A stretch of 10,008 bases of DNA from a virus (Duplodnaviria > Heunggongvirae > Uroviricota > Caudoviricetes): the IMG/VR virus record IMGVR_UViG_2609459804_000005. One strand, given 5' to 3'. Below the pieces are notes generated by a model. It worked only from the letters and a program-made list of their open reading frames with translations, was not told where the DNA came from and did no database searches. Numbering within the stretch: position 1 is the first letter of the stretch; every line of letters begins with the position of its first letter. Of this stretch, positions 2,058-3,640 are shown in pieces. A program made the translations under genes and the position numbers.

Positions 2058-2288
2058 TTAAGATAGCAAAGATGTATCAAGCTGATCCTGCAAAGCACTC
2101 CTTTTGTCCTTTCCATACGCACAGGCAATTTTGTTTATCTCTGCAAATCCATCGCCTTTCACATGGGTATGAATTGCAACAATGACAGGATTCCCTTTTG
2201 TATCGGTCGCCTGAATTAAAGATACCAACGCATCCGATTCAGTTTTCGAACGCAAACTGCAACCGGATCTGTCAGAAGTTGAGGCAAA
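2058..2288 (-). CDS. Third-frame terminal segment of the giant ORF (about 60 codons), reachable only by a -1 frame change; could alternatively be non-coding
   Basis: Frame with codon starts congruent to 2 mod 3 is open from just after an in-frame TGA (2291-2289) to TAA TAA (2060-2055) and reads protein-like: ...SDALVSLIQATDTKGNPVIVAIHTHVKGDGFAEINKIACAYGKDKRSALQDQLDTSLLS*. It has no ATG; the track's start at 2255 is a TTG with no SD. It overlaps the end of the previous frame (stop at 2218-2216) by about 70 nt. An A4 run on the coding strand (plus 2243-2246 TTTT) is a plausible indel or slip site. Confidence 0.4.
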   Translation of the reverse strand, partial: FASTSDRSGCSLRSKTESDALVSLIQATDTKGNPVIVAIHTHVKGDGFAEINKIACAYGKDKRSALQDQLDTSLLS

Positions 2289-3640
2289 TCAGCCAGTGTT
2301 TCCACTGACACAAAGTGTTCTCTGATCTCTGGTCTCGTAGCCTTATGCACAACAGATGCAGGCATAACCAGCGCAAATCTGGTGCCCCAATGCGCGCAAA
2401 ACACGAGGCGTATCCCCAACTCTGAGCATTTCCCTTCTGGAAACCGATTGTAATCCGGCAATGCGACGCACTTCTGAAGCACGCCCTCACCTTCCGGCAC
2501 TTTGAACGGATCAGGCTTACCGCTACGGGAGTACTGAGACGATGCGCCAGCGCCATCCTCACGCGGCGTGTAACCTTCCCGCACACGCTGGCCTAACGTG
2601 CGAATAGTTTCGCGAACAAGTCTGATATCGTTCAGCTCCGTCGGCTTCAGTAACCCCGTGCGACGCAGTACCCCTTTGACCAGGGCAACAACACGCTCCC
2701 ATGCCGCCACAAATTTATTCGGCTGTTTCTCCGCCATATGTGCCAGAAATTCACCCGCCTGCACTTCCGGTGATTCCTTACCATAGGACGCATCAACCTT
2801 ACGCCAGGCTTCACGGATGGTGGCGTTATCACTGTCGCGGGTTTTCAGCACGGTCTTAATGATCGTCTGATATTCCGCTGGCGTGACAACATGCTCCATG
2901 GCATGGTGGATAATCTCGTGACGCAACTTCTCGCGTACGGTCCGCCCGTCAGGGATGTTATCCGCCACCAGGACAATTTCACGTTTATCCGGACGATAGA
3001 ACGCGTGCACCTTGCCGTAACCGTCGAATGATTCACCCGCCAGTGCTTCAGCCTCTTTCTGTGATTTCACCACGCGGACCTTCAGGTCACTGTCCTTAAT
3101 GCCACTAATCACGCCACGGGCAACCGCTTCAACCTGCGGGACCGGGCTGCCTTTGGCTTCCGCACTGCGGTTAACATCCGAAATGAGATTGCCTTCAGGT
3201 GTGCGGGTCACGCCCTTACGGGAATAAAACGCAACGCCCTTGTCCGTCTCACGGGTTTTCAGGGTGCGGAACAGGTGATCGAATGCCTCACGAATACCAC
3301 CATCCAGTTCCGCATTCGTCGGATAAGCCCAGGTGTTATCTGTGTTGTGCTCAGGTGCCTTACGGATATTGACCAGATAATCATTCTCCACGCCAGCCGT
3401 ACGCGCTTTATCCTGAACATAACGCTCAAAGGCACGCGCCGCCATTTCAACATCCGTTGACCAGTACGGTTTTGAGCGCACCTCATCGAGAAGAGCTGAA
3501 CGACGCGGCATGTCACTGTTTTTAATGGCCTCAATGACACCTTTAAACGCGTCGTAAACCTCCTGACGCACCGGATATTCAGCATCAACATATCTGCCGT
3601 CTTTAAATACGCGCCCGGCACGCTGGCTTCCGTCATATAG
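2216..3640 (-). CDS. Second-frame segment of the giant ORF (about 475 codons); carries an HEIIHH zincin-like motif
   Basis: Frame with codon starts congruent to 1 mod 3 opens just after TGA at 3643-3641 and runs to TAA at 2218-2216. From 3640 it reads LYDGSQRAGRVFKDGRYVDAEYPVRQEVYDAFKGVIEAIK..., clearly protein-like. The track lists it from a GTG at 3571 with no SD. It contains HEIIHHAMEH (HEIIH = 2920-2906). This frame is -1 relative to the upstream 1,431-codon frame. Confidence 0.7.
   Translation of the reverse strand, partial: LYDGSQRAGRVFKDGRYVDAEYPVRQEVYDAFKGVIEAIKNSDMPRRSALLDEVRSKPYWSTDVEMAARAFERYVQDKARTAGVENDYLVNIRKAPEHNTDNTWAYPTNAELDGGIREAFDHLFRTLKTRETDKGVAFYSRKGVTRTPEGNLISDVNRSAEAKGSPVPQVEAVARGVISGIKDSDLKVRVVKSQKEAEALAGESFDGYGKVHAFYRPDKREIVLVADNIPDGRTVREKLRHEIIHHAMEHVVTPAEYQTIIKTVLKTRDSDNATIREAWRKVDASYGKESPEVQAGEFLAHMAEKQPNKFVAAWERVVALVKGVLRRTGLLKPTELNDIRLVRETIRTLGQRVREGYTPREDGAGASSQYSRSGKPDPFKVPEGEGVLQKCVALPDYNRFPEGKCSELGIRLVFCAHWGTRFALVMPASVVHKATRPEIREHFVSVETLADLPQLLTDPVAVCVRKLNRMRWYL

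Follow-up and report, generated by a model that had tools for sequence, protein, structure and literature searches.

Frame breaks in a giant prophage polyvalent-protein gene of an Escherichia coli draft contig probably reflect a consensus of two prophage alleles

The 10,008-nucleotide (nt) virus record IMGVR_UViG_2609459804_000005, hereafter the window, carries on its minus strand a giant gene for a polyvalent protein that appears to be broken into several reading frames. The original prediction, made from the sequence alone, placed the second of two -1 frame breaks of this gene at a run of four A's (A4) and offered homopolymer error, phase variation, decay or recoding as explanations. Comparison with intact relatives leads us to a different reading: the contig is probably a consensus chimera of two co-resident prophage copies, an assembly artefact, and the studied break, which lies between positions 2255 and 2254, most likely carries no biological signal and indicates nothing biologically new. 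A consensus chimera is favoured because the lesions are deletions only, because the sequence would have to switch between alleles at least 14 times in 1.7 kb, with pristine sequence between the patches, because the frameshift products and junction strings are found nowhere else in the collections searched, and because both contig ends lie within genes at a locus that seems to fragment in short-read drafts.

The window is the entire contig JNNG01000073.1 (reversed) of assembly GCA_000700545.1, from Escherichia coli 2-052-05_S4_C1, a phylogroup B2, sequence type ST452, O81:H7 strain isolated from a Tanzanian child (PMC6222053). The isolate was sequenced with 100-bp reads on the Illumina HiSeq 2000 and assembled with MaSuRCA into 179 contigs (PMC6222053); MaSuRCA combines super-reads with Celera overlap-consensus. 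In the deposited annotation both contig termini fall within genes, which would be a sign of repeat boundaries in short-read assembly. Sibling colonies of the same stool sample are different strains, and hence not replicates. By megablast, the contig corresponds to the late region of 933W-like (Sepvirinae) Shiga toxin (Stx) and lambdoid prophages, with matches in 186 phage records and in 426 of 5,426 complete E. coli genomes; the best relatives are NCTC9112 (96.3% over 99% of the contig) and phage PhiR5_2. In both of these the gene is one open reading frame (ORF) of 2789 amino acids (aa). Ten further loci, recognized by an identical upstream 420-aa protein, gave a single ORF of 2787-2793 aa in eight cases, so that homologues ending at the equivalent of position 2216, where the second frame stops, were not what we found; of the remaining two, one is cut by an insertion sequence (IS) and the other, also IS-bearing, has no called giant ORF. 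In all, nine of eleven related loci examined have the gene as one unbroken ORF.

On the minus strand, the first ORF runs from an ATG at 7554 to 3259 (1431 aa). The second frame is open from 3571 to a stop at 2218-2216, ending ...PVAVCVRKLNRMRWYL (with more context, ...LLTDPVAVCVRKLNRMRWYL), and the third is open from 2288 to a TAA at 2060-2058, reading ...SKTESDALVSLIQATDTKGNPVIVAIHTHVKGDGFAEINKIACAYGK..., and takes over again at 1985. Much of the original description thus stands: the stop of the second frame, the open third frame and the A4 run at 2246-2243 are all present, and in the window sequence the third-frame segment has neither an ATG nor a Shine-Dalgarno-like sequence of its own. The three frames are indeed pieces of one gene, as tblastn of the intact PhiR5_2 protein (2789 aa) against the window gave three collinear pieces: aa 1-1308 at 7554..3625, aa 1308-1772 at 3628..2243, and aa 1693-2521 at 2480..3. 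It also holds that annotation splits the gene, since the deposited gene calls, KDT31365.1 and KDT31366.1 among them, comprise products of 1431, 331, 65 and 630 aa. The 65-aa call (TTG 2255..2058) matches Pfam MuF_C, and its TTG start at 2253-2255 is a product of the deletion; the intact sequence there is GTT ATG. The reading-frame features are as follows.

1..7554, minus strand: disrupted giant polyvalent-protein gene, with its ATG at 7554; the contig end is reached at codon 2521 of about 2789
2058..2288, minus strand: third-frame open segment, in register from 2253 to 2066
2216..2218, minus strand: second-frame stop codon, met out of register (from translation)
2243..2246, minus strand: A4 run, not the lesion site; of equal length in the intact A-type homologues described below (TCG AAA ACT)
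2376..2481, minus strand: second-frame stretch out of register with homologues (nucleotide alignment and overlapping tblastn high-scoring segment pairs)
3..1985, minus strand: remainder of the gene in the third frame, stop-free, 661 codons to the contig edge

Both downstream frames had been taken for protein-like sequence. This is borne out for the third, which between 2253 and 2066 differs from the A-type protein by one residue (a conserved Ser changed to Cys) and matches the MuF_C profile with 44.6 bits, so that it is conserved as part of the same protein. It fails for the second frame at 2481-2376, where about 35 codons are out of register and stop-free by chance, and where the string LQKCVALPDYNRFPEGKCSELGIRLVFCAHWG is not real protein. 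Register is restored after the -1 lesions at 2384 and 2376, and the second frame stays open because the bases lost at 2499-2481, 2384 and 2376 add up to a multiple of three. This is a stretch that a reader without tools would accept as genuine protein.

For the comparison we distinguished three versions of the affected segment: the A type, which is that of E. coli NCTC9112 and phage PhiR5_2; the commoner B type, found in ML35, UPEC-245U, AU5Stx1 and phi191; and a third allele class, the C type, of 04-00955 and 2013C-3033. One alignment (A1) comprised the window and six homologues, including three close A-type sequences (NCTC9112, PhiR5_2 and one IMG/VR contig), and a second (A2) comprised five homologues. 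A reference panel of ten was used for string occurrence checks; scans for window-specific strings used exact patterns, which near-variants would escape.

Relative to NCTC9112 and PhiR5_2 the gene has not two breaks, as had been proposed, but nine frame-disrupting lesions, with 17 nt lost and none gained, all between 3623 and 1985. The losses are 1 nt at 3623, a net 7 nt at 2499-2481, 1 nt each at 2384, 2376 and 2254, 2 nt at 2065, and 1 nt each at 2042, 2041, 1995 and 1985. In addition, a GAAAAA to GATTAA substitution places a TAA at 2050-2048 in the homologous register. Beyond 3623-1985 all indels are in-frame (6, 3 and 6 nt), most other differences fall on third codon positions, and upstream on the contig all four genes are intact. 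From upstream to downstream, the lesions and the allele strings around them are these.

3620..3626, minus strand: first frame break, 1 nt lost at an A-to-B switch; A type GCCAGGCG, B type GCACAGCG, window GCCAGCG
2482..2500, minus strand: B-type 19-mer GTGCCGGAAGGTGAGGGCG abutting A-type TGCTTCAG, net 7 nt lost relative to the A type
2373..2385, minus strand: B-type 13-mer GCACCAGATTTGC with two single-base losses, G5 to G4 at 2384 and GATCTT to GAT-TT at 2376
2253..2261, minus strand: the studied lesion, 1 nt lost between 2255 and 2254 and A to T at 2261 (alignments)
2064..2066, minus strand: 2-nt loss, TTGCTGTATC to TTGC--TATC, yielding the TAA TAA taken for the gene end
2040..2052, minus strand: B-type 13-mer ATTAAGCCGCGAT with two single-base losses (2042 and 2041) and the TAA at 2050-2048
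1982..1998, minus strand: B-type 17-mer ATCGCGGCTCTGCGGAT (ML35/phi191/UPEC-245U) with single-base losses at 1995 and 1985

At the studied lesion the base was not lost from the A4 run. All six A1 homologues, and the five of A2, keep TCGAAAAC or its equivalent, and the loss falls between 2255 and 2254, where homologues read GTTATGCG and the window GTT-TGCG: an A flanked by T's is gone (GTTATG to GTT-TG). The three close A-type homologues of A1 read GTAGCAGTTATGCG against GTTGCAGTT-TGCG in the window, or, in a wider context, GGTAGCAGTTATGCGTTCGAAAACTG against GGTTGCAGTT-TGCGTTCGAAAACTG. Set beside both alleles, the window's GGTTGCAGTT-TGCG compares with GGTAGCAGTTATGCG in the A type and GGATGCAATTTACCG in the B type, and over 2253-2261 its TGCAGTT-TG compares with AGCAGTTATG and TGCAATTTAC, respectively. 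Accordingly, the fused reading ...PVAVCVRKTESD... obtained by adding an A to the run is not that of the true protein, which reads ...PVAVMRSKTESD.... Nor does the break lie near the 3' end with some 60 residues to follow, because it falls at about codon 1769, within MuF_C, with about 1,020 codons remaining beyond it. The window's string at this site, GGTTGCAGTTTGCG, occurs in none of the ten references. A pattern scan of 2225-2275 that allowed both variants recovered the intact variant only, in two IMG/VR contigs, and the same scan of the genome and metagenome collections recovered neither.

The lesions coincide with an alternation between two known alleles. The segment 2500-1985 is an exchangeable module that is covered by only 10 of the 426 E. 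coli records (four at 95% and six at about 80%); in the others only the flanks are matched, as their module version is too diverged for megablast. Six A-type records are mutually identical over the 531-nt module, in which the window has 9 mismatches and 9 gaps, and the window's differences there are therefore not ordinary divergence. Instead, within the MuF_C module the window is exact A type save for seven B-bearing patches of 1-19 nt, with a further patch at 3623. A greedy exact-match parse against the allele panel gave block lengths of B(138), A(97), B(12), A(99), blend, A(129), blend, A(51+13), B(12), A(44), B(14) and A(235), placed as follows.

2619-2482, minus strand: B, exact match
2481-2385, minus strand: A, exact match
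2384-2373, minus strand: B, exact match
2372-2361, minus strand: 12-mer GCTGGTTATGCC, exact match in the C-type panel only
2360-2262, minus strand: A, exact match
2261-2253, minus strand: blend
2252-2124, minus strand: A, exact match
2123-2116, minus strand: blend
2115-2052, minus strand: A without the TG at 2065
2051-2040, minus strand: B, exact match
2039-1996, minus strand: A, exact match
1995-1982, minus strand: B, exact match
1981-1747, minus strand: A, exact match

Among the references, the strings GTGCCGGAAGGTGAGGGCG, GCACCAGATTTGC, ATTAAGCCGCGAT and ATCGCGGCTCTGCGGAT are confined to those of the B type (and UCPROB), and the ML35/UPEC-245U type accounts for all four; the 19-mer, for example, has exact matches in AU5Stx1, ML35, phi191, UCPROB and UPEC-245U only. 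Over 2481-1982, 15 of the 20 columns at which the window differs from the A type carry the B base (binomial p = 3.8e-6), and thus the lesion bases equal those of a second known allele at the homologous position. The C type was considered as patch donor, with only the T at 2261 and the 12-mer at 2372-2361 fitting it, and the B type is preferred. Patch edges share 1-4 nt, neighbouring columns alternate between alleles at 2261-2253 and 2123-2116, and the B/A joint at 2482/2481 has no homology. The two module versions are about 60-65% identical, an estimate from alignment A2 and not a computed value. As the A and B alleles differ by small indels, each flip loses 1-7 bases, and the result is nine frameshifts and one in-register stop. 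The frequency of haplotype switches across the gene was also tried as a test for artefact and proved uninformative outside the module, where the natural alleles are themselves too mosaic, in blocks.

In the collections searched, the junctions and their products are private to this contig. The 1431-aa and 331-aa frameshift products were found in JNNG01000073.1 alone among 153 billion gene positions. No window-specific string occurred in the viral, metagenome and genome collections, nor in the 5,426 complete E. coli genomes, the phage set and the plasmid set; the B/A junction string at 2482/2481 was likewise absent from the viral, metagenome and genome collections, and the first-break string GAAGCCAGCGTGCC from all ten references. 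The 331-aa product belongs to a 90% cluster of 219 members, of which 40 were read; the other members listed (n = 14) are all partial products on contigs of 300-640 bp, which suggests that the locus often breaks short-read assemblies.

Under the favoured reading, the isolate would carry two related prophages, with A-type and B-type copies of the gene, and the overlap-consensus stage of assembly would have merged reads or super-reads of both. The stretch 2261-2253 would then be a column-by-column blend that drops the columns in which a pairwise A/B alignment puts gaps. Because the edges share only 1-4 nt and adjacent columns at 2261-2253 differ in allele, this looks like column-wise voting and not homologous exchange. 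Each true copy would be an uninterrupted ORF of about 2,790 codons with conventional translation, and the protein would presumably be packaged with the phage DNA and injected along with it, as has been suggested for polyvalent proteins. Several points weigh against this account. The artefact is deduced from allele comparison, a B-type prophage in the isolate is likewise presumed, and no assembler step can be named that would prefer B bases in short patches alone and A bases elsewhere. Since MaSuRCA assembles its super-reads from exact k-mers, the reads should normally contain the junction k-mers unless these arose at the consensus or merge stage. The substituted bases 2118 G and 3593 A match neither allele in the panel. 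Finally, the lesions at 2499-2376 total a multiple of three, which may be chance (1 in 3) or a hint of a real molecule.

The contig could alternatively be accurate and represent a real, dead chimera, formed by microhomology template switching or short-patch heteroduplex repair between co-resident prophage alleles. The A/B patch pattern is also compatible with such an origin. Excision-repair tract sizes span patches of 12-19 nt, super-read assemblers rely on k-mers that are present in reads, and lambdoid prophages are strongly mosaic, as is the rest of this gene, block by block, among its natural alleles. On the other hand, a real recombinant would have to combine at least 14 alternating switches in 1.7 kb, with edges of 1-4 nt, between modules of an estimated 60-65% identity; adjacent single columns alternate at 2261-2253 and 2123-2116, the joint at 2482/2481 lacks homology, and no junction is shared by any other genome or phage. 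The sequence between patches is 100% A type, which leaves no time for decay. We therefore regard a real chimera as possible and rather unlikely. A related biological scenario, in which patches of 12-19 nt are converted in vivo in a hypervariable MuF_C from a second prophage allele of about 60% identity, at microhomologies of 1-4 nt and as a form of templated cluster mutagenesis, is doubtful. Diversity generation by a retroelement was considered and rejected: several changed positions are A in the A type, but changes affect C, G and T as well, bases are deleted, and the replacements are those of the B type. Old pseudogene decay was rejected as well, as the sequence between the patches is identical to six A-type records. 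The suggestion of a decaying gene could thus survive only as a two-allele chimera; ordinary decay does not fit such pristine sequence.

Explanations that centre on the A4 run fare worse. Random sequencing error, such as homopolymer miscalls, would account for the G5 to G4 change at 2384, and other deposited copies of the gene, such as that of strain G1/2, do carry homopolymer-type frameshifts. This is the only run-length change among the nine lesions, though, with the lesion at 2255/2254 and seven others of a different kind; the platform was Illumina HiSeq, and the lesions all fall within 1.6 kb of a 10-kb contig, in the same places as B-type strings (p = 3.8e-6), which makes miscalling very improbable. 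Recoding and phase variation can in effect be dismissed. A programmed -1 ribosomal frameshift at CGA AAA C would join the second and third frames, and an A4 run does lie in their overlap, upstream of a frame that encodes conserved protein. Yet the zero-frame codons, GTT TGC GTT CGA AAA CTG, contain no X XXY YYZ heptamer, and the downstream RNA is not significantly structured, with a minimum free energy of -19.6 kcal/mol against -16.9 +/- 3.1 kcal/mol for shuffles (z -0.88). The same A4 lies in the continuous ORF of intact homologues, which read AVMRSKTESD and not AVCVRKTESD, and the break is absent from all six aligned homologues and from the continuous ORFs of eight of the ten further loci. 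Within 270 nt of such a shift, a ribosome would still run into the 2-nt deletion, the TAA in the homologous register and another four losses of one base. For a phase-variable contingency switch the site lacks any tandem or simple repeat, and the A4 run is of constant length in A-type homologues, with the lost base outside it. That the segment is instead a separate small gene, the 65-aa TTG ORF at 2255-2058, agrees with its having been called by a gene caller and has next to nothing else in its favour: the ORF is an internal MuF_C fragment (profile positions 32-90 of 103) with a deletion-made TTG and no Shine-Dalgarno sequence.

The assignment of the gene rests on its domains and its setting. 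In the intact homologue Pfam places LPD5 at aa 1044-1193, LPD1 at 1354-1433, MuF_C at 1742-1840 and LPD38 at 2472-2677, all scoring far over their cut-offs, and the protein matches phrog_616 end to end (residues 1-2789). In NCTC9112, MuF_C (PF18819, gathering threshold 27.6 bits) scores 83.9 bits; the 44.6 bits given above come from the third-frame fragment of the window by itself, which covers profile positions 32-90 of 103. In the window these domains and a further motif lie as follows.

3970..4419, minus strand: LPD5 (PF18799, 156 bits), aa 1046-1195 of the 1431-aa product
3706..3720, minus strand: HEWFH (HExxH, zincin-like) motif, about 28 codons upstream of the first break (from translation)
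3251..3490, minus strand: LPD1, second frame (PF18796, 86.5 bits), aa 28-107 of a 451-aa ORF
2042..2335, minus strand: equivalent of MuF_C (PBECR-type), split by the studied break; homologue aa 1742-1840 mapped through the alignment
152..9, minus strand: start of LPD38, truncated by the contig end (Pfam)

Iyer, Burroughs, Anand, de Souza and Aravind (2017, PMC5512222) regard MuF-C as a predicted RNase domain of the PBECR type, name MuF_C and LPD38 among the domains of phage-type polyvalent proteins, and propose packaging and injection for large polyvalent proteins that adjoin virion genes. At homologous loci the gene lies downstream of genes for a tail-tip protein, Lom and Hok and upstream of Panacea and IbrAB. 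With several unrelated LPD and effector domains and a location among virion and tail genes, the product of the intact gene is a phage-type polyvalent protein sensu Iyer et al. 2017. The HEWFH motif, in a stretch for which Pfam reported no family, could mark the metallopeptidase often carried by polyvalent proteins.

A Pro/Gln/Glu-rich linker on the minus strand has in-frame length differences at 5854-5865, 4916-4927 and 5061: an extra CAGCCA/CAGCCG hexamer common to the B-type and UCPROB alleles, together with an extra GTGCCG (VP) hexamer and one 3-nt loss that are both private to JNNG01000073.1. All of them have the look of polymorphisms from ordinary repeat slippage. Between the 420-aa gene and the giant gene, at 7574-7593 on the minus strand, a terminator-like hairpin (7 pairs, 6 of them G-C) is followed by T7 about 20 nt upstream of the giant-gene ATG, and the giant gene may thereby have its own transcriptional control or depend on read-through. 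At 8933-9835, three small upstream ORFs, all intact, differ at 70 sites from all three full-length references used, and this part of the contig is a distinct allele of otherwise conserved genes.

The main value of this case is one of caution, as apparent same-sign homopolymer frameshifts dissolve on comparison with intact relatives and with the alternative allele. KDT31365.1, KDT31366.1 and the 65-aa and 630-aa products should be read as fragments of one gene, and the apparent gene end at 2058 is not an end. More broadly, sequencing and assembly often go wrong in this 8.4-kb gene, which is a recurrent trouble spot in E. coli assemblies. In the strain G1/2 copy, deletions in G/C homopolymers cluster about 205-217 nt from the gene start, the ML35 and 2012EL-2448 copies are annotated as 'frameshifted', and the phage phi191 copy is split into at least five ORFs. 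If the contig sequence were true, it would record an unusual, patchy templated mutation between prophages, and nothing requires this.

Among known systems, the closest is the polyvalent protein of 933W-like Sepvirinae (WP_087895084.1 of NCTC9112 and XSB41417.1 of PhiR5_2), which is the same gene with the same LPD5-LPD1-MuF_C-LPD38 domain set. It occupies the same place in the gene order, after the tail tip, Lom, Hok and four small ORFs, and is about 96% identical in nucleotides over 7.2 kb. The homologues are uninterrupted, whereas in the window copy nine deletions disrupt the frame, one stop is present, and the contig end cuts the gene at codon 2521. With the polyvalent class of Iyer et al. 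2017 the window gene shares the joining of unrelated effector domains in one polypeptide near virion genes, a class for which frameshifting is neither predicted nor needed. A dnaX-type -1 frameshift (A AAA AAG plus hairpin) also places a short A run in a frame overlap, as is seen here, whereas the window lacks the heptamer, the structure and the conservation, and has lost its base 8 nt upstream of that run. The pattern instead resembles haplotype-chimera consensus errors: here likewise the lesions are confined to the segment for which two diverged versions exist in the genome family, and the consensus alternates between them, only loses bases, and is without independent replication.

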